A stretch of DNA of 64,000 bases from Octopus sinensis. Taxonomy: Eukaryota. Both the position numbers and the translations under genes were made by a program. The DNA lies in NCBI RefSeq assembly GCF_006345805.1, contig NC_043003.1, positions 72,664,001-72,728,000 on the forward strand, given 5' to 3'. Under the pieces are notes generated by a model, which saw nothing but the letters and a program-made list of their open reading frames with translations, was not told where the DNA came from and ran no database searches. This document shows positions 5,756 through 44,900 of the stretch, one piece after another (within the stretch, counting starts at the first letter, position 1; each line of letters begins with the position of its first letter).

Positions 5756-5787
5756 CACCCATTTATTTCTAATTATATATATATATA

Positions 5788-6950
5788 CTGGGGTTGGACA
5801 AAATAATGAAAATACCTTAAGATTTCAAGCAAATTTATTTTAATATGGGATAGGACTGCCTTTGGCTGTAATTACAGCTTGGATTCTACGAGGTATGGTC
5901 TTGTACAAAGTTTGAATTGTTTCCAAAGGAATTTTTGTCCATTCTTCAGCTAAAAGTTCTTGTAGTCATGATGGTGGAGGATAGCGACTCCTTACATGTT
6001 TTTCTAAAATGCACCATAAATGTTCAATAATATTGAGATCTGGGGACTGTGGTGGCCAGATAAGATGTTCAACTTCACTAAAATGTTCCTTTTTGCCATT
6101 CAGTAACAACTTTAGCTGTGTGAATTGGTGCATTATCATCCTGAAAGATTGCATTTCCCTCCAGAAACAGTTCTGCAACCATAGGATGAATTTGATCAGA
6201 TAAAATACTTAAATAGTCTTGACTGTTCATTTTGCCATGAAGGGGAACCATAGGGCCTGCAGATTTCCAAGATATAACCCTCCAGGTCATAACAGATCCT
6301 CCTCCATGTTTAACAGTTGGAAGAAGGCAGTCTAGGTCCAAAAGCTTCTTTTGGCTGTCTCCACAAATATACTCGGCTGGTGGTCAGAAATAAGGTAAAG
6401 GGTGACTCGTCCAAGAAAGTAACATTCTCCCACTGCTCTAGGGACGAATTCTGTTGGTTTTTACTCCACTCTGAACATTCGTTTTTGAAAATTGTGGTTT
6501 TTATGATTGCAGCCCTCCCAAGAAATCCAACTTTGTGCAACTCTTGGCAAACAGTTTTTGTGGAAACTGGGTTCTTGAGATGGTCATTAAACTCGGCAGT
6601 AATTTTGGGAGCTGTACTCTTTTGATCCTTTTTAACAATTCTTGTAAGAGTCCGACAGTCCCTATCTGGAAGTTTTTGTTTTCTTCCAGAGTTTTGTTTC
6701 AGCGAGGAGGATTTTCCCTCTTTCTCAAAGGCTGTCATTTTGAGACAGTACTTCTTGATATACTAAACATTTCGGCTGTTTTTGTTACACTAGTGCCTGC
6801 CATACGAGCACCAACAATTTGACCTCTTTGAAAGTCTGATAGATCTGTCATTTTAATAAATTTTAAGTCTCCTTTTCTGATGATATCTGAAAAGAAACAG
6901 CAGTTTTAGCAAAGCATATTATGCAACACTAATAATCAAAATAAAAAAAA
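5788..6950 (-). mobile_element. Tc1-family DD34E transposon, second copy, inverted relative to 481-1728
   Basis: TA followed by CTGGGGTTGGACAAAATAATG (TIR) at 5788. ORFs give FLDESPF, FQDDNAPIH and WPPQSPDLNIIEHLW (DD34E). Frameshifted. Confidence 0.93.
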
Positions 6951-7169
6951 CAGGTTTATCATACCCCTCCACCAACAAAGTGTGACTGTCTACCTGTGTT
7001 AAAAATTATGATTGTCTTATAAGTTCACATATTCATATACTGTGTATGTTATGGGAACTGATGTGGATGCTGATACTTTAACCAAAGTTCATTGGAGTAA
7101 AACCATATATTCATTTAGTACAGCACTGAGCAGATATTTCTCTTTAAAGATTTTTAGATTGAAATAAAC

Positions 7170-16707: not shown

Positions 16708-17327
16708 TTAATCTATTTAATGCCACCAAACCATTGCCCTTTACCATTAATCTGAGTTTTAGAGCTCTTTTTAAAAGATTTTTTAGACACTTGATTTTTA
16801 AATTTCATTATCTATTTGTCCTTACTTTAGAAGGAAAGAATTAACAGCAATATCACCAAGACTAATATTATTTTTTCTTTAATAGAAATTATTGACATGC
16901 TGTGTTTTGGATGCTTAAGCATTGAAACTTCTGGTCTGAACACTGAAGACAGACCTGTTAGTGTTGTTGCTATTATCGTTACTTTTATTGTCATGTGTGC
17001 TTATTTCATTTTATTATTGAGACTTTATGACCAATTTTGAGACAATGAAAGAACCTCCACTTGGTTATACAATGTGCTACAAATGACCACCAAATTTCCC
17101 TTAAATCACACCCTAGTGTCTTCAAAAAAAGATACATTGCAAATGTGGTCCTAGATATCCCTAAAATTAGGTAATAACAACATTATCAAATTATTTTCAG
17201 TATTGTTTTATTATTCTTAATTTGTAAAAACTTATTAATAAAAATTGTCATTGAGCTTCAGTAAAACACTCAATATTCTCTTTTCTCTCTTTTTTAAAGG
17301 TCTTCACTTCATTTTTAATTCTTAGCA

Positions 17328-17567
17328 ATGGGTAATTTTTTCACGAAAGCACCAATTGCAAGTAGCCCGGAGTTTGCTAAGTTTGTTGAAAAAACTATTC
17401 ATGAAAACTGTATTGTGGTTTTCTCCAAGACCTACTGCCCCCATTGTAACACTGTGAAAACAATATTTGATAATCTTAGTGTAAATTACAAAACTATTGA
17501 ATTGAACAAACGAGAAGATGGTGAGCAGATCATGTCTGTACTGCAAGAAATTTCCCATAGGAGAACG
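17328..17567 (+). CDS. GLRX2: Glutaredoxin-2-like, coding exon 1 (aa 1-80)
   Basis: MGNFFTK..ENCIVVFSKTYCPHC..YKTIELNKREDGEQIMSVLQEISHRRT contains a dithiol CxxC in Grx context. Phase-0 donor ACG|GTAAAT at 17567/68. Candidate upstream acceptors at 17299 and 17325. Confidence 0.92.
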
Positions 17568-18314
17568 GTAAATTCATGAGATTTTTATTATTCATTTCTT
17601 TTTGCATACACATCTACATAAAAAGATGTTTTCCTATAATTATCTATATATCTTCTCTGCCCATTAATCCTGGGAATTACATGGGGCTACTTAGGAAACT
17701 CCTCCATTGGATCCTCTCAGAAGCAACTGTCATTACACTTTGCATATGGATTCCCAAACATAAACAAATGAGTCTGTGGATATAGTAATGGGTTTCATAA
17801 ACTGAAATTTGAAAGTAGGACACAATGAAGGCCAAATCAAAACATCATCACTGTTGCTTTTTTACCTCTGCTATATCCTTTGTTTCTTTGATCTAGATAG
17901 TTGCATTTCACCTCTACCTGTCTCCCTTCTCATCACACCTACTGTGCCTCTACACATACTATTATATCCAATCCTTTCATTGTAAAGCATCATTCCACCT
18001 CAATTTCATCAATTTACAGATGGTCATTGAACATGAAATGAATCAGTCTCACCATTATAGGGGCAAATGGGGTCTGTCATAAGCACTGTCCCCATTGTTT
18101 TGATTTCATGGGGTGGAGGCTGTCATTAAGCTTCTGTTTTTTGTTTTTTTTCCTCCTGGGACAATCATAAACAAAACATTTACAGTTAGCTAGCCTTAGC
18201 TACTATTTTCTAAATCAGGGTCTATCTTCCATGCTGTTTACATGACTGTATATGTTTCCTATAATAATACAAACTATGAATTATAACTAGTTTATATATT
18301 TACTTTTATTTCAG

Positions 18315-18437
18315 GTTCCTCGTGTATTTGTGAATGGTAACTGTATTGGTGGCTGTGATGATACAAAAGCTCTCTATCAATCAGGGAAACTTCAAGAGAA
18401 GATAAATGAGTGTTCTGAAACGAAAGAAACATCCTAA
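18315..18437 (+). CDS. GLRX2: Glutaredoxin-2-like, coding exon 2 (aa 81-120, stop)
   Basis: Acceptor TTTTATTTCAG|GTT. VPRVFVNGNCIGGCDDTKALYQSGKLQEKINECSETKETS* completes the TVP and GGxDD glutathione-binding motifs. The extra Cys pair (NCIVV / NEC) is characteristic of Grx2. Confidence 0.93.
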   Translation, partial: VPRVFVNGNCIGGCDDTKALYQSGKLQEKINECSETKETS

Positions 18438-20463
18438 TGTTATTGTTCCCACTCCATTTCATCATGCATTTGGATTTCTGCTGGTTAGCCAGTATTTCTA
18501 TTGGAATGTTCTCCTTGTAGAACTACTGTAAAAAAAATTGTATTAGAATTTAAGACTAATTTATCATGAAATGAGAAAATTGAATTGAAAATAATATCAA
18601 ACTAGTTAAAAAATTTGGACATAAAAAGACACAATTTACATATGTTAAAAAAAACTAATAAATTATTTATTTTTCGCATAATTAAAAAAAATCAAGTGGA
18701 TATTAAGTGTTTTTTCATACAGTTGTTGTTCTTGTTTCATTCTGAGAAAGCCTTGTGCAAGCTCTATCATCAAAACCATGGGTTGAATGGTTCAACAGAA
18801 TTTGGTAAACCTGAAGACTGCCTCAATCTCAAGTGTTTACTTCACCATGGGTTTCTAAAGCTGGATACCTTTCCTAATACCAACCACTGTTTAAAGTGTC
18901 AATGACAAATATGAGAGATGTTGAGAATGATAACAGATATGAGGGGATATTAAAGTTGAACTATAGTAGTTATAACAGGAAGCTCAGGGAAAAGTAAAAG
19001 CTAAATGGTAGCACAGAAAAGGGTCATCAGTGGAAAAGGACTATATATGTATATAAATACACACCCACAAGCATATATAAAAATCATCCAGTCCACACTG
19101 TAAAGTGGTTGGCATTTATTTGGAAGGGCATCTGGCTGTAAAAAAAAACATGCCAAAACTGACCTCTCCTGTGATGGTGCTATGCAAAAAGCACTCGGTT
19201 CACTCTGCAGAGTGACTGGTGTTAAGAAAGGCATCCAGCTGTAAAAAGCCTGCCGAAACAGACACAGTAGCCGGAGTTAGGCTTCTGCTTAGCTGGCTCC
19301 TGTCAAAGTGTCCAACCCATTCCTGCATGGAAGACAGACATTAAATGATGATGATATATATCATCATTTAGTTTCCATGCAGGCATGGGTCACACGATTT
19401 GATACAATCCTGTGGGTTCAAAGACTTTGTGCTCCAATGTTCTCTATGGCATAATTTCTATGCCTGTGTGCCCTTCCTAAAGCCAACCACTTTACTGTGA
19501 GCACTGGATACTTTTATGCCACCAACACTAGTGAAGTCGTCATGTAGCTTGTAAGGTTAAGAACCCAGAATACGGGGTGTCGGATTTATGCTTAGAGATA
19601 AGGGGTAGGAAGAAATGTGAATTTTATAGAAAATTTATAGGCTTGTATGTTACTTGACTTAAATGTCATTATCATTACAGGAAAATATGCTAAGCTTGAT
19701 ATTATAATTAATATTAAGATTATTAAAACCAGTGAGCTGGCAGAGTCATCAAAACACCAGGCAGAATGCTTAGCAGCATTTGTTCTAGCTGAAACTGCAA
19801 AATGGAATCAAACTGCTCTCACATCAAAGATCCAAAATCACTCATAGCTCACCTCCCTAAGGAATTAACAGCTAAAATCCTCCCATTCTATTGCTGATGT
19901 ACAGCCACTTGGCTAGTCCATCACATTAAGGGATGGATGGTCAAAGTAAAGCTAAATGGACTTGACCATCACATAGTGAACCAAAATGGGTAGCTAAAAT
20001 TCAAGAGTAATCATGCTTCTGCTACAACTACCCTCTCACCAGAGAATCAATGAAAACCAGAGAAAATGTTGCCAAGAGAAAAAATATACAACAAATGTTA
20101 ACAAAAATGTACATGAAAAAAGAAAAGAATATGAGCAAACAGTGTCCAATAAAAATGAACAATACATCAAATGTGAAAATATAGCCAAAAGTTCATATTG
20201 ATGGCTGAAAATGTTAATAACAGTTCAAGATAAAGTCTTTAGAAAATTGCTGTTATTTCTAGTAACAGCAAAAATCAAAGAAGCACATAAAAAAGCAATG
20301 ACTGTAAATTGTGTGAAGCAGACAGTCAAAGGATTTTGAAATTTCAAAATGTATTGTGTTTCAAAAGTGAAACCAAACTGCTCTCACATCAAAGATCCAA
20401 AACTACTCATAGCAAAAACAGAATGCAAACTAAAACACAAGACTACAGACAAACTCCACTCAG

Positions 20464-20512
<49 letters not shown>

Positions 20513-20549
20513 GTGTATAACTCTCTTTTGTCTGTAATATTTGTCTAAA

Positions 20550-23435
20550 GGACAACCTGCTGAGAGCCACTGACCAGATCTGTGGCTGGTGCAAAGTCCC
20601 CTCCCGACCTAAAATAACATGGTGGTGGAACAATGTTGTAGACAGGGCTATTAGAGAAAAGAGATAGGCTTGGAAGGACTCGAAGAATGGGGGTAGCAGG
20701 AAATTGTATCAAACTGCCAGAAGGGAAGCTAGGAGACAGGTTTATTTAGCCAGAGGGGAAGCGGATAAGAAAAAATTTGCCAATGTTCTGCACCGTGAGG
20801 ACCAAAGACTTAACGTATTTCATGTTGCAAGACAGTGTGTGAGAGAGAATCGTGATGTGGTAGGAGAGAAATGTGTTCGCATGGATGATGGTTCACTTGC
20901 GCTAAATGAGGATGCAAAGAGAGAGGTTTGGAGACGCCACTATGAAAGATGGCTGAATAAAGAAAATGAATGGGATAAAGAGAGTCTGCCGAATGTCGAC
21001 CCAACAGAGGGACCAGCTATCCAAGTTGACAGTTCCTTGGTAGTTAAGGCAATTAGAAGCATGAAGACAGGGAAAGCCCCAGGCCCATCAGGAATTACTG
21101 CAGAGATGCTCAAAATATCTGTTAGTGTCAGCTATAGCCTAGTCACCCGTATAGTTAACCAGTGATACACGAAGGAGTCATACCCAATGACTGGTGTAGC
21201 AGCATAATAGTCAACTGCTACAAAGGTAAAGGTGACGCCCTAGATACAAATAATTACAGAGGTATCGAGCTGTTGGATCAGTTAATGAAGGTTACGGAGA
21301 GGGTCATAGCCCAACTAATTAGAGAGAGAGTTAGTTTGGATGAGATACAGTTTGGGTTTGTGCCAGGGAAAAGCACCACTGATGCCATATTTCTGGTAAA
21401 ACAGCTGCAGAGAAATATCTAGCCAAAGATAAGCCCCTGTACCTGGCTTTCGTTGACATGGAGAAAGCCTTCGACAGGGTCCCCCGATCCCTTATCTGGT
21501 GGTCAATGAGGAAACTGGGGATAGATGAATGGTTAGTGAGAGCTGTGCAAGCCATGTACAGGGACGCTGCTAGTAAGGTGAGGGTTGGCAACGAGTACAG
21601 TGAAAAATTCCGGGTAGAGGTTGGGGTCCACCAAGGTTCAGTCCTCAGCCCCCTTCTATTTATCATAGTCCTCCAGGCAATAACGGAGGAATTCAAGACA
21701 GGTTGCTCGTGGGAGCTCCTCTACGCTGATGACCTTGCTCTAATTGCTGAGTCACTATCAGAACTGGAGGAGAAGTTCCAGGTGTGGAAGCAAGGATTAG
21801 AATCGAAGGGCCTTAGAGTCAACCTAGCTAAAACCAAAGTCCTAATAAGTAGGAAGGTAGACAAGTCACAAACGCCTTCAGGTAGATGGCCCTGCACGAT
21901 CTGTAGGAAAGACGTAGGTATGTAGTGGATGTGTGTGTATGTAAACAAATACATAAACCGTTTCATGATTAAAAGGAATTTAATTACAGGGTTATAAGTA
22001 CACTACATACAAATGTAAGCAAATGCTACGAATTGCTCGTATAGAGCACATATTAAAAATGAATATGTTTGTGTGTGTGTGTTTCATTCGAAACAGTAGT
22101 CGATAGATACTGTGAGCATTTCTCTCTGTCTGTCGTCTGCCAAAACGCGGGGCGAAATAGATCTGTCTGCTGCCGTCTCCGCTGCGATTGTCCTTTCTCT
22201 GTTTTTCCCCTTGTATTTATAATATTTGTGACAGCTAGAAAAACAGACATATCGCAATAGACACAGTGCTTATTTAGGTCATCACTTGTCCAGTTGAACT
22301 TAGCCTGACATGGCTGAGGTCGCCGGTCAAAGGGAGATGATCGATCACTTTTTGACAGAACAAAGGGATTCTTACTTTTGCGCCTTTGATTGCATTGGGT
22401 TGGACGACCGATGATTCTTGGATTCGATTTCGAATCTAGGCTTAGAGAAGGAAGTGCTAATTCTTACAGGTAGAAACTCTATAAGATGCACCAAGTGCAA
22501 GCTATGGACACATAAGAAGTGCAGCAACATCAAGGGAAGGCTAACTGGGAAGATAGTTTTTGTATGTGGCAGATGCTCAGGAGCAATAAACACTGAAAAT
22601 ACGCAGAGACCAACTTCCGCCACATTCCAGGGAGAAAAACTAGAAATAGTTGATAGCTTCCGTTACCTAGGTGACCGAGTCAGTAGCGGGGGCGGGTGTG
22701 TTGAAAGTGTAACTGCTAGAGTAAGAATAGCCTGGGCAAAGTTCAGAGAGCTCTTACCTCTGCTAGGGACAAAAGGCCTCTCGCTCAGAGTAAAAGGCAG
22801 ACTGTATGACGCATGTGTACGAACAGCCATGCTACATGGCAGTGAAACATGGGCCGTGACTGCTGAGGATATGCGTAAGCTCGCAAGAAATGAAGCCAGT
22901 ATGCTCCGATGGATGTGTAATGTCAGTGTTCATACTCGACAGAGTGTAAGTACCCTGAGAGAAAAGTTGGACCTAAGAAGCATCAGTTGTGGTGTGCAAG
23001 AGAGACGTTTGCGCTGGTATGGTCATGTGGTGAGAATGGATGAAGATGGGTGTGTGAAAAAGTGCTACACCCTAGCGGTTGAGGGAACCTGTGGAAGAGG
23101 TAGACCCAGGAAAACCTGGGACGAGGTGGTGAAGCACGACCTTCGAACTTTAGGTCTCACCGAGGAAATGACCAGAGACCGAGACCTTTGGAAGTATGCT
23201 GTGAGTGAGAAGACCCGGCAGGACAAGCAAGGCCATAACCCGTGGCCTCAGTCCACTTATGCCTACCTTTCCTTCTTGGGAGACAAAACTCTACTCGTGA
23301 AGACCTGTTGAGGCAAGTGAAAAACAAAATCAAAATCAAAATCGATCAACATCAATGGAAATCGCAGCTGTGATACCAGTGCCGGTGGCACATAAGAGAA
23401 CCATCCGAGCGTAGCCATTGTCAGCGCTGCCCCGA
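20550..23435 (+). mobile_element. RTE-clade LINE, 5'-truncated and frameshifted, interrupted by a solo LTR
   Basis: RT motifs KTGKAPGPSGI, NYRGI, QFGF, KAFDRVP, GVHQGSVLSPLLF and LLYADDL, then a PHD-like Cys region, FRYLGD, LHGSETW, RLRWYGHV and GRGRPRKTW. Frameshifts near 21163 and 21410. Confidence 0.95.
21921..22468 (-). mobile_element. Solo LTR (Gypsy-like, 4-bp TSD) nested in the RTE ORF
   Basis: Termini TGTAG...TTACA. TSD GGTA at 21917-21920 and 22469-22472. Minus-strand TATAAAT (~22214-22220) and ATTAAA (~21978-21983) suggest antisense orientation. The LINE frame resumes exactly after it. Confidence 0.85.
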
Positions 23436-23454
23436 CTACCTTCTCCCTTTCACT

Positions 23455-23959: not shown

Positions 23960-24310
23960 GCTATCACTGATGTTCTGTTACTATAGTAAACAACATTCCG
24001 ACTTCGTTTCAGAAATTCAAGTAATCCATAATATTTTTATACATTCCCTAGTTCCTCCGAGAAAGAAAAGTTCGCAATTCTCCACTTATTGGTCAAACGA
24101 TTAAAAGCAAGAAGAAGAAAAGCAGTAAAATATATGGCGTATTAAAACTAATTTAGTATTCGTTAAATTTACCAGAAATCATGTTAATTATTTCCTTAGA
24201 TTTAATATTGAATTTTTTTTTAAATGGCTATTTCGTCAAGTGCGGCTTCAGAACGGAGAACTAGCTCTATCTCTAAATCACTTCCTCGCAACGAGTAAAC
24301 AAACATGGCG
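23960..24310 (+). promoter_or_regulatory. Putative FOPNL promoter/5' UTR
   Basis: Repeat-free, relatively CpG-retaining stretch before the ATG. Contains an X-box-like GTTACTATAGTAAAC (23977-23991), forkhead-like GTAAACAA (23986, 24295), ETS-like CACTTCC and YY1-like AACATGGCG over the start codon. Confidence 0.5.
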
Positions 24311-24332
24311 CAAGTGAAAGATTTAAAAAACG
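24305..24332 (+). CDS. FOPNL: FOPNL/FOR20/CEP20 exon 1
   Basis: ATG GCG CAA GTG AAA GAT TTA AAA AAC G|GTAAAT encodes MAQVKDLKN, resembling vertebrate MATVAELKA. Phase 1 fits exon 2. Confidence 0.85.
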
Positions 24333-26082
24333 GTAAATTCCTTCTTGAACACACTTTAGTTTGCAGAACAGTTTTTTCTGTAGTTTTTACCACACCGTAA
24401 TATAACCTGTTACTCACAGTCTGAACAAACGGGTCTCTAACTGTGAACTTACTAGAAATAGCAGCCAATTCCTGCAAATCAACCAATACCAATTTTCACT
24501 TCATAGTCACGTGAACACTGTTGCTATTTAACCACAGGCCAACCTTCAGTGAATAGTGTGGCTTTAATTCTGACTGTGACTATCCTATTTTAAGACAGCA
24601 TGTTGTGATTTGTGGGAAATTTGGACATTATTTCTAACAGGCTTAGCGACCGTGTTGAAGGTAGCTTGTACCAAACTATCGTAGCACCAGTAGCACTGAG
24701 AACTTTTTTTTTTAATTACTGTAAAGAGTAACGTTTGTAATGATAATGAAAACATGCTTTCTCAGCTTTTTACTCAATTGTAGTTAATATATAAATGTCA
24801 TGGCGTTTTATATGCAATTACTTTTATAATATAGTGGCCCACACTACTTGCAGTTGGAAGTACAGAAACCCATACTATACACACCAATAGTAACATTGCA
24901 TTTTTCCTTCTTAGAAAAGAAAAATTCTAGCAGTATCAAATAGTTTTGATACATATTTGCATCTCCTAAGTTCATGGGAAGTTACTATTTCATGATTCTT
25001 CACACTGTGGTATATCTTAATAAAATGGTCCAAGTACTATTGGGATTCTTTTATTTTATTCTACAAGAGATGTGAAGGTTTTCGTGGACTTTGAAGCAAG
25101 GCATCGAGTCAGTTATGAAACTATAGATTCCTGCTCATCTAGATACCTGATGTTTGCATTTGTTGGATTGTTTAGTTCTTAGTCTACAACATGAACTACA
25201 AGTGGTTTGTTTTGTTGCTTCTTGTGAACTTCCTTAGTGCTGGTCTGGGAGTCATTAGTTATTCCACTGTCACTCTCCCCATTAAAATTCACTATCCTCT
25301 TGTGAATTTCCATGGGAAGACCAGCATTGGAATACAAAGACATGTTTATGAGTTGTATTTGTTGTTGTACGGAACAGTGATGTATGGAAATGTAGCACCT
25401 CAAAAGGCACCTGTTCTCAGTGTATCTTTGACATTACATTATTCAAAGGCAAAACAGACTGTCTTCCATATGTTCAACCTCTCTACCTGTCCATTCATTG
25501 TAGAGGTGATATGAAGTAGTGGGAGAGATATTCCTTCACTTCCTTAGACATGAAGCAAATCAGTGTATATAATATAATAGTATAATTTTGCATTAGCTGA
25601 GCAGGAAATCCAGACATCTGATCGTTGTTGGTGCATACATACTGGGACATAAAAATGCAAAATAAAAACATGAATATTCAAGAACTATTATGAGTAAATA
25701 TGAATTACACAAAACAGTTGGCAAAATTTCCTTGAAAGCCATATTAAGCTGTTCCATAGGCTTTATTGCTTTGGTAAGAGTTCCTTCTTGTGGGTGATAG
25801 AACTGAGATTTTAGTTCAGTACAAACCATATGAGAACCACAAGCTTTTCTCATGTGTAAAAACAGAAAGATTCCTAATAAAATGCAGTTGCCAAGTTACT
25901 CCTAGTTGACATAGACCATTGTGGATGTCAGCAAATATGGAAGAAATAAAACTGAATTAATGAGTAATTGTGTCAAACATCACATTCGTCTAACCAGGAC
26001 AATACTTCATTCTGAAGTTAAATGGTACAAGTTCCTGAATCTTCATATGTCTTTTCTTTTTACTATTAAACATAAAAGATAT

Positions 26083-26415
26083 GAAGGCACATTGCTCAGT
26101 GGTTAGAGTGTTGGACTCAGTATCATGAATAGTGAGTTTCATTCCTGGACTGGGTTGTGTGTTGTGTTCTTGAGCAAGACACTTTATTTCACATTGCTCC
26201 AGTTGACTCAGTTATAGAAATGAGTTGTGATGTCACTGGTGCCAAGCTGTATCAGCCTTTGCCTTTCCCTTGAATAACATTGGTGACATGGAGAGGGAAG
26301 GCTGGTATGCATGGATGACTGCTGGTCTTTCATAAACAAACTTGCCCAGACTTGTGCCTCAGAGGGAAACTATCTAGGTGCAATCCTGTGATCAGTCATG
26401 ACTGAAGGGGGTCTT
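26083..26415 (+). mobile_element. tRNA-derived SINE of another family
   Basis: tRNA-like head GGCACATTGCTCAGTGGTTAGAGTGTTGGACTC..GAGTTTCATTCC, followed by TTGAGCAAGACACTTT and a TGACTGAAGGGGGTCTT end. Confidence 0.65.
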
Positions 26416-26499
26416 TATTAAACATAACAGCCACTAACCTCTGATCAGTCACCTGACTAAAGTGGCACCATGGTAGATGATTGTTCCATTTACTCCTTA

Positions 26500-27790
26500 C
26501 TTCAGTATGTGGTAGTGTAATTCACTTCCTTGTAGCAATCTTGACTTGAATGCTACAGGTCATCCTCTTGGGATAAGGACAGCAGAAATAGCCACATAAG
26601 TTGCATCCTGTTCTACCTCAGTAAGTTTCCATCTACTGAGTGCAGAATGGTTTCCTTTAACTCTCTTTAGCAAGTTAAAGGTTTTCAAAGACTTCTCTTC
26701 TAATAGAAACTTCTTTGTGTATACCAATGGTTGAATTTTGTCAGTAAATACATGAATCCACTTGGCATAATATGCAAACATTTTGAGTATTCTTTTTAAG
26801 GATTGTAAATTTTTTGGAGGAGGAAACTTTTGTAGTGGTTGAAGCTTCTCAGGATCTTGTTTAATGATATCATTAACCACACAGAGTATCCAAGACCATT
26901 TAATACAATCAATGGTTTTTGAAGTCATTAAATGTTAGGTGTCTGCTACTGATAATCTTCAGAAATTCCTCTACAGTTCGGTCATGCTTCTATTTCTGTA
27001 TCTGTCCAGCAATAGTAACATTGTCAAGATAAGGAGTGTTGTTTTGCAACTTTTCCTCTTGCACTAGCCCATCCATCACACATTGCATGGCAGCTTCTCC
27101 ATTTATAACGCCAAATGGAATGATAAAAAAACTGAGACATGTATTGACCCCAAAAGTCATATACTCTCTGTCAGACCATCTTCATTAACTCTTAGTAGCA
27201 GGCACTTTTTAGGTTAAGGCTGAGAACATTCTATATTTTATGAGTTTATTCACCATCTTGTCTTTTATTAGTTAAGCATCCAATTTTGTATATTAATTGA
27301 CTGTGAATAACCTGTGCACATATGTTTCTTGCATTGATAGGCAGGATCACTCAGTACTACTACCTTGGCTCACCATGCTGATATATTCATTTCAATTATA
27401 CCTTCTGGGAGTAAATGGTGTATTTCCTTTGCAATGAAGTCCTGATAATCTTTGCTGAAGCATCTTGATTTGACAGCAATTAGTTTACAACATGGAGACA
27501 TGTTTGGGAAAGGGATGTCTCTTATATTTTTGTCAAGGCCAATGCATAGAAATCGACATCATCTATGGATGGTCATTAAGACCAAGGATTGGATTCATAA
27601 TAACATAGTCCTTGGAAGTAGTATTTAAGGTTTTCTGAGCCATAGTGATTCTTTACTAGATAGTAATTTTGGTTCTGTCACAGCTTTCTTATTAAGGTAA
27701 CTATCAGTGCTGCAGAAATCCAAGCACTTAACCTTTTTCTGTTGTCACTGAAGCTGCAGTGTGAATGAGTTTTTTTGGCACATTTTTCAC
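26500..27790 (-). mobile_element. Gypsy/Ty3 pol remnant (protease-RT-RNase H)
   Basis: Minus frames give LDFCSTDSYL (aspartic protease-like), PFGVING..PYLDNVTIAG (RT YxDD-like), IKQDPEKLQPL..PKNLQSLKRILKMFAYYAKWI and DATYVAISAVL (RNase H). Heavily disrupted. Confidence 0.85.
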
Positions 27791-27946
27791 TAAGCAATAG
27801 AAAATGAACATAGAGTAGAATAAGAAACATTGTTTTGTATTTAGAATATCTTCCTTTCTTTGTTTACTATTCAGTAATAAGTACATAATATGCCAAGTTA
27901 GATTTGAAACTCTATCATTGCTTGTTATTTCTGTTGATTTTACTAG

Positions 27947-28144
27947 CTATTTCTGAAAGTTTGGAAAGAAAAGGTGTCCTGAACCAGGTGAAAGCTCAGA
28001 TACGTGCTGAGATGTTCCACGTACTAGATGAACATTCAGAAGGAAAACCTCCAATATGTAATGAAAACCTCATTATCAATGAATTGATCTTAGAATATCT
28101 CCAGTATAACAAATACAAACACACTTCTTCAGTTCTTATGGCAG
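27947..28144 (+). CDS. FOPNL: FOPNL exon 2 (TOF/LisH region)
   Basis: Acceptor TTTTACTAG|CT. AISESLERKGVLNQVKAQIRAEMF..ENLIINELILEYLQYNKYKHTSSVLMA is the FOP N-terminal/LisH signature. Donor GCAG|GTGAAT. 198 nt, phase 1-1. Confidence 0.95.
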
Positions 28145-28214
28145 GTGAATGTGCATTCATTTCTATTTGTTTGTTTTTCATGATCATTATATTTGTGTGG
28201 AGGTTAACAAACCT

Positions 28215-28800
28215 CCTGGTCTTAAGGTGATAGGGCTGAGATATTTTCTGGTCTTTGGGTGGTAGGGCTTATATACTGCCTGATCCCTTCATGGAAAGGC
28301 TAGCATATCTGATCCTTTGGTCTTGTCTTGTCTTGAGACAGCATTTACCCGGGGTGGGTTGAGCTGGCTTCATTCATCCTCAATGCTGCATCTCTCACAA
28401 ACGCCGACCAGGCTTGGTGATTTGAGGCTAACAACCACATGATCCCCAACCACTCCCTATTGGAGGTCATGCGGTCGTTAGCCTCAAATCACTGTATTAA
28501 CTGTATCGTTGACTCATCATCTAGTCCTTGGGAGGTTGGGCTAACATGCCACCTGGTCTTTGGAAGGTGGGGCTAACACAGTACCAAGTAGTATTTGGAT
28601 AGTAGAGAACTTACAACATAATGGTACTTGGGTGGTAGAACTAACATACCAGCTGGTCCTTGAGTAGTCAGGTTAATACACCATCTGGACTTTAAGTTGT
28701 AAGAATGATGCACTACTTGGTCCCTTGGATAATGAAGCTAACACATCACCTGGGTTTAGGGTGGTAGGGCTAACATGCTTCCTGGTCTTTGAATGTTAAC
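28215..28800. repeat. Degenerate ~30-bp tandem repeat (CTGGTCTTTGGGTGGTAGGGCTAACA-like) in FOPNL intron 2
   Basis: The unit recurs at ~28216, 28248, 28554, 28622, 28654 and 28750. A ~180-bp segment containing a hairpin interrupts it. Confidence 0.6.
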
Positions 28801-29309
28801 ATATATCATTATCATCACATACATTTCTTCCATGCTGGCATTGGTTAAACAGTGCTTTGGCAATATTGTACTTTAGTGAGGGTCAATATGGCTACGACAA
28901 CATTATTCACTCTTGTCAAAAGTGAATTAACAATAAAATGTATTCAACTGCATCTATTGAGGGGTTTTTTGTTTTATTTTTTGGAGAATGACCCTCCCAA
29001 TATATATTTAATCCTCATCTTCATCCTTTTAACATTTGCTTTTCCATGCTTACATGGACAGAGTTTTTATGGCTAGATGCTTTTCCTGTCGTTAACCCTC
29101 ACTTGTTTCCAAGTAAGGTACTATTTCCCTTAGTCCTTTGAACAACAAACAACATTATAGCTCATCATATTTTCACTGTTATATATATGGTGTTATTGTT
29201 TTTATGCAGTATACAAACATCAAGACAGGGAGAAGACACAAACTCATACATATACATATCTCTTGTAATAAACTTTGCTTTGTGTGTCTGTGTATGTACA
29301 TATATATAT

Positions 29310-29590
29310 AACGGGAAAGTTTACGAAAATAAACAAAAGACGAAGGCAGGTGGAGTACAAACAAACAAATGTATTAGTATAGCGCTCAGGAATAGAAATA
29401 GAAAAAGTCTTTTACGTTTCGAGCCTATGCTCTTTGACAGAAAGATACACAGAAAAAAATGCGTGTAGGAGCTAACGATCTATCATGGCGTCCTGACTTC
29501 AGACAGAAGTCAGACGCAAGAAGGACAGTAGGGGAGATAACAGGGTCAAGTGACTTCCAATATGAAGGTGCCCCCAACATATATACACAT
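29310..29590 (-). mobile_element. 3' terminal (pseudo-LTR) fragment of the Neptune-like Penelope element
   Basis: Near-identical to the reverse complement of ~51340-51630. Abuts a (TA)n tract. Confidence 0.8.
29408..29445 (-). ncRNA. Variant minimal hammerhead-ribozyme-like motif
   Basis: Minus strand UCUUU-CUGUCAAA-GAGC AUAG GCUC-GAAA-CG-UA-AAAGA gives stem I, stem II, GAAA, a palindromic helix III and a GUA site. The core deviates from CUGANGA. Confidence 0.45.
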
Positions 29591-29889
29591 ACATATATTT
29601 AGTACAGAGAGATAACAGGGTAACAACATAGTAGGATGGTGAGAAGGTGTGCTATGCTAAGAGAAGTAAAGCTAAGTTAGGAGGAATGAACTGGTAGAAG
29701 GAAGTAATACTTGAGAAGTTAGCAATTAGCCGATGGGGAAACTATTAGCTAAGAATGAAAGATGACAGACTTGAACAATGAAGAGAAAAATGATGGAAAA
29801 TGTAGAAAAATGACAAAATTAAAAATTAAAAATGAAAAGATGATGAGAAGCAGAAGTAGTGTGAAAGGTTTTAATATATTTATTTCTTT

Positions 29890-30120
29890 ATTGCCCACAG
29901 GGGGCTAAACATAGAGGGGACAAACAAGGACAGACAGAAAGATTAAGTTGATTACATCAAATTCCCCCAGTGTGTAACTGGTCCTTTTTTTAATCAACCC
30001 CGAAAGGATGGAAAGCAAAGTCTACCTCAGCAGAATTTGAACTCAGAGCATGAAGACAGACAAAATATCACTAAGCATTCTGCCCAGAGTGATAATGATT
30101 CTGTCAGTTTGCTGCCTTAA
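29890..30120 (-). mobile_element. SINE with Nin/Deu-like central domain
   Basis: Reverse complement of GGCAGCAAACTGACAGAATC..GAGTTCAAATTCTGCTGAGGTAGACTTTGCTTTCCATCCTTTCGGGGTTGATTA. Related copies lie at ~10700-10880, 14060-14400, 42930-43070, 47478-47690 and 57140-57255. Confidence 0.75.
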
Positions 30121-30497
30121 CATCCCATCCAATATGGCAAGACGTATGTGCTCCATAGTTACAGATACCAATAGATGGGAGAAACAACTGGTAGAACTAA
30201 ATGTGTTCCTTTGAAAGCAGAAACATCTCAAAAAGTTAATAAATCATGTCATTACCGAAGCAAAAGAATTCCTGATTTATACCTTATATGTTTGTGAACT
30301 GATGGCATCAAAGGGCTAAGGAAATAAATAAAATATAACTTTCCATCAGGTTAGAGTAGAGTGAATTATAGCACATGTGAATGAAATGAATAAAATAATA
30401 ATGAATAATTGATACTGTAATAAATTATAGAATATAAATTAAATAAATAAAAATGTTAGGTAAAGAAATTTGGAAAGATAATATGATTTTAGTTTAA

Positions 30498-30718
30498 CCC
30501 TTTAGCATTTAAACCGGCCATATCCGGCCAGAAGTTTTCTGCCTGTTTTATGTTCAAACTGGCCAGATCTGGTCTCTCACGTCAACCCTACAATATCGTT
30601 TTAAAAATTAACAGCTACCTCATCAAAAGCTCATAGCTACAAGATAATGCATGATTAGTTCAAAACAATGTGGATAAAAAAGCATTCATTTTGGTAGAAT
30701 AATGCGAACACTAAAGGG
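30498..30718. mobile_element. piggyBac-type MITE (TTAA TSD)
   Basis: TTAA|CCCTTTAGCATT...AACACTAAAGGG|TTAA. Confidence 0.85.
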
Positions 30719-30832
30719 TTAACTAGTGTTTAATTACAACAGGTGTTAAGTAAATCGTAAGCCAGGAAATGCTTGATATTAGTTATTTAATAATTGTGCT
30801 GCAACTGAATAGGTATTACACAAGCTATACGC

Positions 30833-31235
30833 TAGGCTCAGAAACCTGGACGTTATCAAAGAAGCTTGAGAGGCAGTTGGATGGAATCTATACTCGCCTC
30901 CTTATGAGAGCTCAAAATCTCTCGTGGAAGCACCATCCAAACAAAATGCAAATATATGGGAAACTACCACCTGTGTCATCTCTTGTGAAAGGTAGGAGAG
31001 TCCAGTTTGCTGGACATTGTTGTAGAGCTGAAAAAGAGATAATTTCTACTCTTCTCCTCTGGAAGCCATCTACTCGCAGTACCAGAGGGCGCACACTCTC
31101 CTACCCTGATGTAATCTCCAGGGATACAGGCATCCAGCAACAGGACCTCCGTAATGCCATGATGGACCGTGAAGTCTGGCGTAGCATAGTAAATTCCATT
31201 GTCTCGACCACGGTCGAACAATGATGATGATGATG
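30833..31235 (+). mobile_element. 5'-truncated RTE-like LINE insertion with 24-bp TSD
   Basis: Open frame GSETWTL..LDGIYTRLLMRA..FAGHCCR..MMDREVW, then an (ATG)n tail. ATAGGTATTACACAAGCTATACGC is duplicated at 30809-30832 and 31236-31259. Confidence 0.92.
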
Positions 31236-31614
31236 ATAGGTATTACACAAGCTATACGCCAGGTGAGGTGTAGCAGTATGAACCCCAGCAACAGAGTGGC
31301 TATCACTAAACACACCTGTCAGCAATGGAGTGCTGTTAAACCAATGACAAATCGTAGCGAAAAATTTGTCTGAAAGACAAAGCAAACATAAAGTTCTGTG
31401 TAAAGTAATACTTAACAATGACTTGTCACAACAGAAAAAAAAACATCCCCCAAAAACTTGTAATGAGATACATAGTAAACTTCTTATTTAAAGAAGGTTC
31501 CCCACCCAAAACATCAAGAACTCTAATCCTCTCATAGTATACAAACTTATGTATATTCTATTAAAAGGACAATATTGTTTTCCAGAATATTCCTTTTTGA
31601 ATGTAAATATAGCC

Positions 31615-31965
31615 ACAGTCATGTTTGCTTCTCAACCACATCATTCCAGGTTGACTCCCACTGCATAGCATCTTGAGCCAGTGTCTTCTACTATAGCCCT
31701 GGGCTGACCAAAGCCTTTTGAGTGGGTTTGGTAAATGGAAACTGAAAGAAGCCTGTCATGTGTGTGTGTATGTCACCACCACTTGACAAGTGGTGTTGGT
31801 GTATTTATGTCTCATAACTTAGCGGTTTGGCAAAAGAGATCAATAGAATAAGTACCCAGCTTACAAAGAAAATAAGTACTGGGGTTGATTAGTTTGACTA
31901 AAATTCCTCAAGGCAGTACCCCAGCATGGCCACAGTTTAATGACTGAAACAAGTAAAAGATTGAG
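31615..31965 (+). mobile_element. tRNA-derived SINE (family of 15067-15480)
   Basis: GTGTCTTCTACTATAGCC..CCAAAGCCTT..GGAAACTGAAAGAAGCCTGTC..CCAGCATGGCCACAG..TGACTGAAACAAGTAAAAGA. Confidence 0.8.
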
Positions 31966-32222
31966 TAAAATAGAATTTATGAATAAGTTTTACGTTTTGA
32001 AAATAAGAAACTAAATAGAATAATTAAGATAAAAAAAAAAATCAGTATTTATTTATCACAAGTTTAGGTTAGAAATTGAAGAGACAAATGAAGGTACAAT
32101 GGTGTTTGTTTATCTCTAGTTGTTCACCTGCTTCCTCATATGATGATCTCACACCTGCTTTATTGTAATTATAATTAGTATTGATATTTCATTAATGTTA
32201 TTTGTTATAATCATTCTTACAG

Positions 32223-32307
32223 AGGCTGGTCAGTCTGAAACTCGTTTAGACAGAGAATTTATCAAGAATGAACTCAACATTGCTGAGGATTTAGAGACCA
32301 GCAGTGT
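32223..32307 (+). CDS. FOPNL: FOPNL exon 3
   Basis: Acceptor TTCTTACAG|AG. EAGQSETRLDREFIKNELNIAEDLETSSV compares with human ESGQPVVPLDRQFLIHELN. Donor GT|GTAAGT. 85 nt. Confidence 0.92.
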
Positions 32308-33245: not shown

Positions 33246-34319
33246 GAGTGTATTTTACCTTGTTAACAATTAACATGGATAAATGAATGAATAGTTACCA
33301 GGGCAGCAAAAATCTCACAAGTAAAGATGTTGTAACTCCTTGTTTATAAAGGTTGAAACTTCGTGTTTACGTTGAATATTTGAATGATATGAATAAAAAA
33401 TGGAGTTAACGCAGGTTTAAACAAGTATTTTTACTTTCTACATATGTTTCAAAAATTCCACTGATACTTATTCAAAAGAATAAAAGGTATAAACAATGCA
33501 ATCTTCTCTTCGGGAAAGTGAAAAAACGAAACTTGTCAATACAACATTTTAGCAAAAAATTATGGATTCGTATAGCGATAGACAGAACGCTATTAATATT
33601 GTTTAAAAAAACCTTATATGATATAACGTCATAAGTAGCTAACAGAAAGAGTAGGGATATTAATAGTGAATGTTAAATATAAAGGAAATTAAAGTCTAAA
33701 CTATATATAATGATAGAGACTACTTATACGCACTAAAAGTATGTTTCTGCCAATGCTTACATCTGTATGCTCATTCTATAACCGTGTTTACTAGAGTATT
33801 TTTAGAAAAAATAATGAAAAATAGCTCAGAATTGCAGAGAAGACAGAATTTCTTGCTTTTGTCATATGGTATCGAAATTGAGAGGATCAACCATTCTAAA
33901 TGAAATTGTTCATTATGGTCTTTTAAATCCCAAATCAGTTTGCTGACACCGGTACTATTCCGTTTATTTCTATCCCTAAATGTTGAGTAATGGATAGAAA
34001 TTCTCTTAGATAACTCTAACGATGTGCTTCCAATGTAAAATCGTACTTTATTACGAGTACTGATTATACACTGGTATATAGAATTTTTAATCTTAGAGTT
34101 ACTTGACATAAATTTAATTCTATTGGGATTGACTTCAGATACAATAACCTTGTTATTAATTTTTCTAGAGGGTTGGATGGTAGTAGCTAAATTAATGTTA
34201 GTATTAGGAAATGTATTAATATTTAACAGTTTGTTATTATGAGAAGATATAATTTGCAAGAGATTTTTTTGTGTTTGAAAAACCTATCCTAACCTTATGT
34301 GAATTAATTATAGAGTGAT
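33240..34319 (-). mobile_element. Penelope-like element 3' part (GIY-YIG endonuclease), left arm of palindrome
   Basis: ORF 33771-34259 gives SIYQC..FYIGST..KRISIHYSTF..NSTGVSKLIWDLKD..LEW.IL..PYD..CLLCNSE, the Penelope-type GIY-YIG C-terminus. It ends in (TA)n. Confidence 0.85.
33433..33519 (-). ncRNA. Hammerhead-ribozyme-like fold (left-arm copy)
   Basis: Reverse complement of 35116-35202. Confidence 0.5.
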
Positions 34320-35241
34320 ATTACTCTATAATTAATTCACATAAGGTTAGGATAGGTTTTTCAAACACAAAAAATCTCTTGCAAATTATATCTTCTCATA
34401 ATAACAAACTGTTAAATATTAATACATTTCCTAATACTAACATTAATTTAGCTACTACCATCCAACCCTCTAGAAATATTAATAACAAGGTTATTGTATC
34501 TGAAGTCAATCCCAATAGAATTAAATTTATGTCAAGTAACTCTAAGATTAAAAATTCTATATACCAGTGTATAATCAGTACTCATAATAAAGTACGATTT
34601 TACATTGGAAGCACATCGTTAGAGTTATCTAAGAGAATTTCTATCCATTACTCAACATTTAGGGATAGAAATAACGGAATAGTACCGGTGTCAGCAACTG
34701 ATTTGGGATTTAAAAGACCATAATGAACAATTTCATTTAGAATGGTTGATCCTCTCAATTTCGATACCATATGACAAAGGCAAGAAATTCTGTCTTCTCT
34801 GCAATTCTGAGCTATTTTTCATTATTTTTTCTAAAAATACTCTAGTAAACACGGTTATAGAATGAGCATACAGATGTAAGCATTGGCAGAAACATACTTT
34901 TAGTGCATATAAGTAGTCTCTATCATTATATATAGTTTAGACTTTAATTTCCTTTATATTTAACATTCACTATTAATATCCCTACTCTTTCTGTTAGCTA
35001 CTTATGACGTTATATCATATAAGGTTTTTTTAAACATATTAATAGCGTTCTGTCTATCGCTATACGAATCCATAATTTTTTGCTAAAATGTCGTATTGAC
35101 AAGTTTCGTTTTTTCACTTTCCCGAAGAGAAGATTGCATTGTTTATACCTTTTATTCTTTTGAATAAGTATCAGTGGAATTTTTGAAACATATGTAGAAA
35201 GTAAAAATACTTGTTTAAACCTGTGTTAACTCCATTTTTTA

Positions 35242-35248
<7 letters not shown>
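34320..35248 (+). mobile_element. Penelope-like element 3' part, right arm of palindrome
   Basis: Reverse complement of 33387-34319 with about 6 substitutions and about 4 single-base deletions. ORF 34379-34723 is frameshifted after RDRN. Confidence 0.85.
35116..35202 (+). ncRNA. Type I hammerhead-ribozyme-like fold with extended stem II
   Basis: ACUUUC-CCGAAGA-[GAAGAUU...AAUUUUU long stem II]-GAAA-CAUAUG-UA-GAAAGU. Stem I is ACUUUC/GAAAGU, helix III is palindromic, and the predicted cut is after GUA (35196). The core has C in place of U4. Confidence 0.55.
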
Positions 35249-35614: not shown

Positions 35615-36025
35615 CCTAGGCTTCCTGGGTCTACCTCTATCGCAGTTTCCCTCCACATTTAGAAATTGACACTTCTTTACATGTCCTCATCCATGACCAT
35701 ATCAGCTCAGTTGTCTCTCTTGCACACTACATCTGATACTTCTTATACCCAACTTTTCTCTCAAGATGCTTACACTCTGTTGTACATGCACACTGACATT
35801 GCACATCCAGTGAAGCATACTGGCTTCATTTCTTTCAAGCCTACATATGTCCTCAGTTGTCACAGCCCATGTTTCACTGCTGTGTGGCATTGCTGTTCAC
35901 ACACAAGCATCATACAATCTGCCTTTCACTCTAGGGAGAGGCCCTTTATTGCCAGCAGAGGTAGGAGCTATCTGAACTTTGCCCATCCTATTCTTATTCT
36001 CAGAGCATCCACCTCCGCTACTAAC
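35615..36025 (-). mobile_element. RTE LINE fragment (family of 20550-23435)
   Basis: HSSETWAVTTEDICRLERNEASMLHWMCNVSV in ORF 35702-35890. Confidence 0.85.
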
Positions 36026-37119: not shown

Positions 37120-38400
37120 GTGTAAGAAGGGAGGGAAAGAAACTGCTGGAATTCTGGGATGCAAATGACTTGAATGACGTGAATTTTAAGATATTAGCCA
37201 TCCACTTGATTACCTATCAATATGGTAAGTACACAAGAAAGATTAACTACATTCTCTCCAGAATATGAGATGGGCAGATGCTTGTAAATGCAATCTTTCT
37301 ATAGTGAAAAATGTATAATCCAAAATAAGTTAGTGATTAGTGACTTCAAACTCAGAGCTACAAGGACTCAGAAAAGCAAACCAGTCTGGAAAAGGAAGAT
37401 ATAGATGCATAAAGACCCAGTAAGTAGTCAGAAAGTTAGAGAAATTGAGTGGACGCATTTGACATAGAGAACAATTGGAAGTTGCTACCGGACAAACTAC
37501 TGAGAGTTACAGACCAAACCTGAGGCTGATGCAAAGTTTTGGCCAGACAAAAGTTGTTGGTGTGGTGGTGCAACAGTGAAGTAGCCAGAGCTATAAAAGT
37601 GTAAAGACAGTCTTGGAAAGACTGGAAAAATAGAAATGACAGAGAATTTTATCAGGTAGCCAGAAGATTAGTGTGGGAGAAAGGTTTACACAGCTAAGGG
37701 AGAAGCAGAAAGTAGGAAATCTGTCTGTTCAACATGAGGATCAGAGACATGAGATATTTTGGTTTGCAAGACAATATATCAGAGAGAATCAGGATGTTGT
37801 GGGTGAGAAGTGTATGTGAAAAGATGATCCACTGTCCATACTCACCTTTTTTTTAACTTGAGTTTGTTCTGGTACCCCTTACAAAGATCAAGTTTCATCA
37901 CCTTATCCCATGTCTTCCTGGGTCTACCTCTATCACAGTTTCCCTCCACAGTCAGAGATTGACACTTCTTATGCCCAACTTTTCTCTCAAAATGCTTACA
38001 TTCTGTTGTACATGCACACTGACATTGCACATCCAGTGAAGCATACTGGCTTCATTTCTTTCAAGCCTACGTATGTCCTCGGTTGTCACAGCCCATGTTT
38101 CACTGCTGTGTAGCATAATTGTTCACACACAGGCATCATACAATCTGCCTTTCACTCTGAGAGAGAGGCCCTTTGTTGCCAGCAGAGGTAGGAGCTATCT
38201 GAACTTTGCCCAGCCTATTCTTATTCTCACAGCTACACTCTCAGAGCATCCACCCCAGTTACTAACTTCATCACTTAGATAATGGAAGCTATCTACTACC
38301 TCAAGCTTACCCTGCTGGCAGTTGGTAGAGTCTATTTTCTGCACATTTTCAGTGTTTATAGTACTTGTACATCTTCCACACACAAAAGCTATTTTCTCTG
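37120..38400. mobile_element. Two decayed RTE fragments in opposite orientations (+ ~37120-37830; - ~37880-38400)
   Basis: The + part matches the endonuclease end/linker upstream of the RT (LLEFWDAND, INYIL, RENQDVVGEKC). The - part gives GKLEVVDSFHYL..RIGWAKFR and RGRPRKTWD. Confidence 0.75.
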
Positions 38401-40189
38401 ATATTACTGCATCCCTTGTGTGTCCATAGCATACACCAGGTGTGTATTTTATCATTATTCTGCAGTCAGTCATTGCGACTATGATTGTTTATGGCTTTGG
38501 CATGACTTGATAAGCTTTCTCGATACTGGTTGATTTTTCACTTGGGTTTGCCATTTATTATGATCAGTTCCTTTCCACCTATGCTCATTTTTGCAAATCT
38601 CAATCTAGGTCTTCCCTGGGAGTAAAGGATTTGTATGGAGTGTTTGTTGTTGTCCATCCTGTGTATATGGCCAACCAACAAAAATTTCTATCAATGAGGA
38701 TTTCTATCATAGTAGACAAGTCTAAAAATGGAACATTTGGTGCTATTCGAGGACATTTACTTGGTAATTAAAATATAAATAAAGTGAATCAAGTACCACT
38801 TCTAGCCACTTTGGATAGGCAATTTCCACACCTCATTCCCATTTCAAGCCAGAGTGTTAGTGGTACACCAATATAAGCACTCATTGTACATACCTATTAA
38901 TATATTTCAATAGATGTATACTACTTGCATCTCCTCTATATGTGTGTGTGTGTTTGTGTGCACATACACATGCATGCACACAAGTGTGTGTGTATGTAGA
39001 CTCTTGCTATCATTGTTAAGGTGTTGGGCTGGCAGAATCATTAGAGCGTCAGAAAAATTCCTTTTTTGCAGAATCATTACAGTATCAGAAAAAATCCCTT
39101 TTGGGATTTTGGACAGCTTGATGGAACTGGTATGGTTAGGTGCACCAGGTTCTACAGTCTGTTTTGGCTTGGTTTCTACATACAGCTGGATGCCTTTCCT
39201 AACACCAACCACTTTACAGAGCACACTGTGTGCTTTTTACATGGAACCAGCACTTTTCACACCAATGCTTTTTATGTGGCACTTTGGTTTTCATTTGTTG
39301 TGGTGGGTGGGTCATGTTGAGTTCAGCAAAGCATCACATACCTTGATCCATGTCAGTCAATAAATCACAAGAATGAACAATAACAGTCACTGGATTGCAT
39401 CTTTAGGAATCCTGCTTTGCTTATGGCTTATTTTATGGAGGATACTTTGGAGTTGCAAGTCTTAGCATTTTGAGATCAGCCTTCAATACTTCATCCCATA
39501 TCTTTCTGGGTCTCCCTCTTCCACAACCTCCCACCACTTTAAGTGATCAGCATGTTTTTATGCAATCCACATCCATCTGCATCACATGACCAAACTATTA
39601 TTATTATTATTAAGGTACAGGGCTAGAAATCTTGAGGGAAGGGGATTAGTCAGTGTGTTGGCCTCAATATATAACTGGTATTTTATTATATTGACCTTGA
39701 AAATGATGAAAGGTAAAGTTGATTCTGCCAAGTTCAAATTGCTAGACTTTTGGGGGTGAGGGGGTCATTAAAATAAAGTACTAGTTAAGTACTGTGCTTT
39801 ATAGTTTTAATTGATCCCCTCCTCTCAACTACTGGCCTTGTGCTTACATTGGAAACTATTATTTGTTTTCTTCTGTCCTTTGTCTATGATATTTAAGAAT
39901 CAGATCTGAATCACATTAGTCATTAAATATTGAAAGTAAAAAAAACATAAATCACATTGATTTTTAATCTCATCTTTATTATTGTCTTTCATTTGTTTTG
40001 TGTGTGTGTGTGTGTTTCTCAGAAAATTTGAACACCTGACCTGTTGTTGCAACATATTAAGCAATGGTTTTGTATTGTGTCAGAGTAAACTTTTCTCTTT
40101 GTTTTTCTGGAGTTATTCCAATGAGTACCAGTCATATACTGGGGTTGATGTCGAATACCCATTTAAAATCTGGCATAAATTCCATTGAT

Positions 40190-44362: not shown

Positions 44363-44593
44363 ATGCCTCGGTTAGCTGGGACCGAACCTACAGTAGTGGC
44401 CACACCGCCACATGCCCCGTCGCAAAAGAAACTAATTGTTTTAGTTGACATGGATATGGTGTTGTGTGATTTTGAATCATACTTTTTGGAGAAATACCGT
44501 GAAAAGTATCCGACGGAACCTTATGTGCCATTAGAAGAACGTTGTCAGTTCTACATTCGGGAACAGTACGCCACTATACGACAGGATCTTTCG
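44363..44593 (+). CDS. NT5M: 5'(3')-deoxyribonucleotidase (NT5M/NT5C-like, HAD family), exon 1; gene continues beyond what was recognised
   Basis: LIVLVDMDMVLCDFESYFLEKYREKYPTEPYVPLEERCQFYIREQYATIRQDLS aligns by eye to human [54 protein letters not shown] (HAD motif I DxD). Phase-0 donor TCG|GTGAGG. NT5M versus NT5C orthology is not resolvable here. Confidence 0.88.
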
Positions 44594-44619
44594 GTGAGGA
44601 TTGAACCTATCATAGATTT

Positions 44620-44900
44620 TATTTTGTACATGTTTCAGTCATTGGAATGGGCCATGCTGGGGTACTATCTTAAAAGAATTAGTCTTTTTTTTTTTCGGGT
44701 ACATAAACAAAGCAGCACTGGTTGTCCAGCCGTGGTGGAGACAAACACAAACACTTCAGTTTCTGTCTACCAAATCCACTCACAAGTCTTTGGTCGGTCC
44801 GGGGCTATAATAGAAGACACTTGCCCAAGGTGCTACGCAGTAGGACCGAACTCAGAACTATGTGGTTGGGAACTAAACTTCTTACCACACAGCCACGCTT
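44620..44900 (-). mobile_element. tRNA-derived SINE in NT5M-like intron 1
   Basis: Reverse complement of GCGTGGCTGTGTGGTAAGAAG..GCACCTTGGGCAAGTGTCTTCTATTATAGCCCCGGACCGACCAAAG. This accounts for the tail of ORF 44363-44902. Confidence 0.8.

Follow-up and report, generated by a model that had tools for sequence, protein, structure and literature searches.

A CsRN1-type Ty3/Gypsy solo LTR nested in a dead RTE LINE of Octopus sinensis, with intron-like borders that are probably fortuitous

In this study, we examined a 64,000-nucleotide stretch of Octopus sinensis DNA (GCF_006345805.1, contig NC_043003.1, positions 72,664,001 to 72,728,000; hereafter the window, in whose numbering coordinates are given unless a genomic contig is named) and identified a solo LTR that belongs to a CsRN1-type Ty3/Gypsy family and interrupts an RTE LINE in antisense orientation. 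With a probability of roughly 85%, the locus is a solo LTR nested in a dead LINE copy, whose intron-like ends are a chance by-product without function. The element and its orientation, the target site duplication (TSD), the empty site, the broken host and the chance-level use of targets were each observed directly. As found, the locus has little import of its own, as nested insertions of this kind, a solo LTR within a dead LINE, are commonplace when a genome of 2.7 Gb is rich in repeats.

The insert measures 548 bp (21921..22468, element on the minus strand). On the + strand of the window it opens with TGTAGTGG at 21921 and closes with GTGCTAATTCTTACA at 22468, which gives TGTA..TACA ends, and it lies between two copies of GGTA (21917..21920 and 22469..22472). 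The RTE halves on either side share one frame (CRKDVG / GRNSIRCTKCK), and the insert read in that frame contains nine stops. For comparison, 30 of the 40 scored RTE matches were fetched, one of which was the window copy itself. The insert was absent at this site in all 29 other copies; a single GGTA was present in 27 of them, GATA in one and a deletion in one. The GGTA duplication is therefore a true TSD.

With regard to splicing, the GT at 21918-21919 inside the left TSD is a donor-like dinucleotide, whereas the first G of the right TSD completes a CAG at 22469, its AG occupying 22468-22469. A CTAAT motif is located at 22457-22461, with its A at 22460. The GT..AG segment 21918-22469 is 552 nt long (184 codons), and its removal rejoins the RTE frame; this neutrality is inherent in the geometry, because excision of an element together with one TSD always restores the target. 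The sequence-only reading from which we started had described the interrupted ORF with its ends and duplication, the donor, the CTAAT motif, the acceptor and the frame-restoring removal. All of these were confirmed on the sequence, to which the empty sites add independent support for the insertion.

The whole interrupted RTE copy spans 20544-23443 on the + strand. Its 5' portion (20544..21920) contains the RT domain (Pfam RVT_1) and is 95% identical to other copies, and its 3' portion (22473..23443), recognised by copy comparison, comprises the Cys-rich insert, the thumb region and the 3' UTR. The clade label RTE follows the sequence-only reading and is assumed here. The family is abundant (1752 first-look candidates), and its longer copies have an upstream endonuclease-like part. 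The host copy is 5'-truncated, since related copies extend upstream of 20544. It also bears single-base deletions near 21162 and 21410 relative to all three copies compared (L037, L045 and L054), both upstream of the LTR insertion, in agreement with an earlier remark that other frameshifts were present. Because of this truncation and the two frameshifts, even perfect splicing would yield no intact ORF. The private substitutions of the host comprise 20 non-synonymous and 10 synonymous changes, and a pN/pS of 0.57, not different from 1 (P = 0.18), neither shows nor excludes constraint. Three further, diverged RTE fragments were found in the window (59025-59966, 37965-38436 and 35621-36000), 75-78% identical to the host copy.

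A genome search with the LTR gave 597 first-look candidates. Among the 40 that were scored, the best relatives were 93% identical, and several relatives were paired, ~5.3 kb apart, on either side of gag-pol. The interior of one pair encodes, in broken frames, a DUF7041 Gag, protease (RVP), RVT_1, RNase H and integrase, which is the Gypsy order. Seven full-length family copies of ~5.8 kb were identified, whose LTR pairs are 96.9-100% identical; a primer site, TGGTGACCCC, follows the first LTR, and the second is preceded by a polypurine tract. The form TGGTGACCCCG follows the 5' LTR in five of the seven, the last base differing in two, and the primer site pairs over 11 nt with the 3' end of host tRNA-Trp(CCA). 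ARAGORN found no tRNA in the first four of four loci tried and tRNA-Trp in two loci of a cluster; this cluster, at G000:C6:69.58-70.14 Mb, contains ~20 tRNA-Trp-like sequences, two of them confirmed as tRNA-Trp(CCA). A CHCC signature, CX2HX9CX3C, lies at the end of the Gag ORF in the one copy read (L032), and 26 distinct family sites show both LTR ends together with an exact 4-bp TSD. The earlier proposal that the insert is an LTR is thus supported by paired direct repeats around gag-pol in seven full-length relatives, in addition to the TG..CA ends and the 4-bp TSD. A MITE or DNA transposon was also considered and rejected, as the repeat search gave no terminal inverted repeats beyond TGTA..TACA.

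Since the primer site and the polypurine tract are on the strand opposite to the window + strand, the LTR is antisense to the LINE, as had been suggested, and its 'acceptor' end is therefore the reverse complement of the U3 terminus. This stretch (22429..22468, + strand) holds the CTAAT motif and TTCTTACA. Read in sense (minus strand), the LTR runs TGTAAGAA...CCACTACA, and a motif scan indicated ATTAAA near 21984 as its candidate poly(A) signal. The 20-base end motif, GCTAAYTCTTACA, is family-wide, with 256 genome matches versus none in a reversed control, and one subfamily carries the canonical CTAAC. A 14-base pattern from the left end was uninformative (70 matches versus 68 in the control). 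The splice-like end is thus conserved in the family, as the sequence-only reading had anticipated. This conservation needs no splicing explanation, because this is the integrase end, the U3 terminus that adjoins the polypurine tract; the available part of a previous study describes LTR termini as conserved integrase recognition motifs (PMC3601003).

Two other properties of the LTR (21921-22468) were noticed. Its minus strand starts with T/GTAAGA (the slash marks the cut), a donor-like motif that lies within the element. When the LTR is read in sense, its 3' end also scores higher as an acceptor tract than the antisense end (2.0 versus -3.4). On paper, sense insertions at AGNN targets would be spliceable with a gain of 3 nt.

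We propose that GGTA was the integration target of a full-length element, whose interior was then deleted by recombination between its two LTRs. The GT of the left TSD followed by A-TGT gives GTATGT, and the terminal CA of the LTR together with the G that opens the right TSD gives CAG. Such GT-AG borders arise, in either orientation, whenever a TG..CA element lands on a GGTN target: an LTR ending in CA with a GGTN duplication reads G/GT..CAG/GT. More generally, a TG..CA element with a 4-bp TSD leaves GT-AG on cutting when the TSD is GGTN, NAGG or AGGT, again in either orientation. On the sense strand of the host RTE, frame-perfect GT-AG targets make up 123 of the 2199 four-base sites (5.6%), and GGTA itself is found at 12 of the 2199. 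At a few percent of their possible targets, elements of this kind thus produce perfect GT-AG borders, for which this locus is a clean example; such chance borders are raw material for LTR-derived intron gain.

Target use in the family is at this chance level. GGT follows the end motif in 4 of the 256 matches; once internal junctions are removed, ~190 sites are left (an estimate based on a share of about one quarter, judged by eye in the first 100 rows), for which P(>=4 GGT) is 0.14 at base composition. The targets lean to NATN and not to GGTN: by eye, 36 of the first 100 rows (of 183 in total) are NATN and 24 start with G. Family copies thus show no consistent splice sites, whether carried or targeted. 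The GT-AG coincidence at the insertion is no more than chance.

To evaluate the two sites, we used a small splice model that comes mostly from one gene, with 32 introns from PRP8 of this genome, defined by homologue alignment (8 of 40 candidate junctions were left out, having one supporting reference only or lacking GT), three introns from the window and one further window acceptor. The donor TAG/GTATGT is ordinary (7.8 bits, with 16 of 35 real donors scoring no higher), and only 44 of the 3621 GTs in the window score at least as high. Over -25..+1 the acceptor at 22469 reaches 0.8 bits, a value as low in only one of 36 real acceptors (median 9.5), and 745 of 3767 window AGs equal or exceed it. 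Its last 14 nt are average (18 of 36 real acceptors), and its final TTCTTACAG is shared with two real acceptors. As a whole the tract is purine-rich, with 8 pyrimidines in 22 positions versus 12-21 in real acceptors; it has three AGs in -25..-3, a stretch free of AG in all but 2 of 36 real acceptors, and its AG-free zone is 13 nt versus a real minimum of 17. Stronger AGs compete with it at 22439 (TAG, 7.1 bits) and 22293 (6.4 bits). The CTAAT adenosine is at -10, and YTRAY motifs at -8 to -10 are found in 3 of 36 real acceptors. Branch points usually lie between -18 and -35, and the lower limit in human data is ~8 nt, according to the accessible text of PMC5378181. Judging from these scores, splicing at 22469 appears possible but not favoured.

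One unlikely alternative is cryptic, functionless splicing, in which stray + strand transcription or read-through from a glutaredoxin gene would sometimes join GTATGT to 22469 or to 22439, the latter retaining 10 extra codons in frame. The normal-strength donor, the average proximal part of the acceptor, a + strand gene that ends ~2 kb upstream and an open frame from 22415 through the LTR end are consistent with this idea. On the other hand, the purine-rich -25..-14 region, the three upstream AGs and the better-scoring competitors argue against it, as does a LINE without its own 5' end, and the promoter of an antisense LTR would be expected to drive the other strand. In a stray transcript over the locus the donor could be used, and 22469 would likely be outcompeted by 22439 and 22293. 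Considering the weak acceptor, the truncated and frameshifted host and the chance-level GT-AG borders, the earlier suggestion that the LTR is spliced as an intron is not supported.

The glutaredoxin gene is located upstream of the LINE, and its last two exons (17300..18493, + strand; Pfam Glutaredoxin) were found in a spliced contig of X9, one of four runs examined as contigs, with the stop at 18435-18437. The same run gave exons 1-3 (24257..32307, + strand) of a downstream gene, so that the host LINE lies between two + strand genes. We take this second gene to be FOPNL/CEP20-like; its FOP_dimer and LisH matches are below cut-off. The 21917/22470 joint was absent among the 15 of 797 joints listed, from which repeat rows had been dropped, and empty-site RTE DNA would give the same joint. 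Because the 'spliced' joint is identical to the empty site of other RTE copies, an RNA junction test is confounded. The locus-private bases at 21896, 21912, 22498 and 22518 allow reads to be assigned to the locus, and the 23-mer left of the insertion site is near-unique (two places in the assembly).

It was also proposed that the family could act as an intron generator, and a true LTR introner family would have ends tuned for splicing and GGTN/NAGG copies kept as introns of host genes. The family-wide end motif, the CTAAC subfamily and the LTR and solo-LTR introners described elsewhere (in the available text of PMC12130899) are in line with this idea, which we nevertheless regard as highly improbable given that the targets show no GGT bias and that no host exon was found at the GGTN, NAGG or NACC sites checked. 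These sites were exact-motif copies: four GGTN, seven NAGG rows (five distinct) and four NACC (LTR-sense strand). They form a sample and not a census, as exact patterns miss diverged copies; AGGT duplications numbered zero among exact-motif copies. Around the splice-compatible copies inspected, no host exon was recognised. The flanks are LINE fragments according to Pfam in L098, the L128 group and L126, and by eye in L160 and L171. L132 is flanked by an ORF on the opposite strand that has no Pfam match, and the remaining splice-compatible flanks that were read contain short open frames. For L097, L100, L164 and L174 the right flank alone was read; in that of L164, a frame of 80 codons runs on the other strand from the candidate intron.

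Other copies of this RTE contain the same LTR family in the same orientation, with TSDs of AATT (L005) and GGGT (L106), neither of which yields a perfect intron, whereas GAGG in the L128 group does so on paper. LINEs are simply a common landing place for this LTR family. It is similarly doubtful in the extreme that the antisense U3 end acts as branch point plus acceptor, so that GGTN insertions would be born as introns and some would be seeded in host genes. There is likewise only a very slim chance that the present LINE copy is a neutral example of LTR introners in a mollusc-like animal. If both splicing and host-gene copies were true, an animal Gypsy family would join the published LTR introners.

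Several structural variants of the family were observed in the genome. Ten copies with truncated LTR ends share an identical right flank at G000:C27:12.51-13.01 Mb (L113-L122), a locally amplified segment bearing one old insertion. A tandem array with three LTRs ~5.2 kb apart is located at G000:C4:76094667-76105140. Opposed LTR ends a few hundred bases apart were seen at C2:20941433-20941774, C10:28829506-28830080 and C1:30773879-30774249. At L031:6586-7500, one full-length member interrupts the ORF of a PIF1-like helicase that probably belongs to a Helitron.

The search for PRP8 revealed a second, compact PRP8 gene at G000:C8697:259001-269000 (L157 and L136-L138), with introns of ~21-30 nt (by eye), unlike the PRP8 gene on C29, whose introns are 0.6-2.7 kb. 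Tiny introns are a dicyemid trait, and the 674-kb contig C8697 likely belongs to a symbiont sequenced along with the animal, for example a dicyemid. Within the window, a 1.87-kb near-perfect palindrome (33387-35248; 98.8% identity to its own reverse complement) overlaps ORF fragments labelled by eye as GIY-YIG/Penelope-like, and two inverted transposase copies, Tc1/mariner-like by eye, are present at 548-1765 and 5761-6952 (86% identical). An exon at 44348-44899 presumably resembles the 5'(3')-deoxyribonucleotidase NT5C/NT5M, and a Pfam search of it gave no match.

The RT domain and high copy number of the host are those of an RTE-clade LINE, from which this copy departs in being 5'-truncated, frameshifted and interrupted. 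With respect to the LTR family, the accessible description of the CsRN1 clade (CsRn1, PwRn1 and AgCR; PMC2582038) agrees in the tRNA-Trp primer site, the 4-bp TSD, the CX2HX9CX3C Gag motif, the DTG protease, the PR-RT-RH-IN order, the length of 5-6 kb and the TGT..ACA ends. The family differs from that description in its LTR, 548 bp versus 146-383 bp among the entries compared, and in its lean to NATN, no target preference being described for the clade. The assignment would accordingly be of CsRN1 type by features (primer site, Gag motif, TSD and domain order) and not by tree.

The idea of LTR introners is not new, as both LTR introners and TSD-derived splice sites have been published. Word searches of open papers (LTR/introner, octopus RTE/LTR and solo-LTR splicing) gave no report of the present family as an introner, and neither 'octopus' nor 'cephalopod' appears in the main text of two introner surveys, whose species tables sit in supplements. 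In the available text of Gozashti et al. (2025; PMC12130899), ~12% of the introners that could be classed with confidence are LTR retrotransposons, and solo LTRs of Copia elements form functional introns in Panicum virgatum. The locus described here resembles those cases in that the ends of a solo LTR plus its TSD can make GT-AG borders; the introners there are annotated introns of host genes, whereas this one is a copy in a dead LINE with chance-level targets. Other published introners derive their two splice sites from the TSD or from the site of insertion (Gozashti et al., 2022, PMC9860276; review, PMC11282704). As far as the accessible text of PMC9860276 goes, those are mostly DNA transposons that form many similar, gene-enriched introns, a set with no counterpart here, and the resemblance lies in the borders themselves: a GT from the left TSD, the G of the AG from the right TSD and an unchanged mRNA length.
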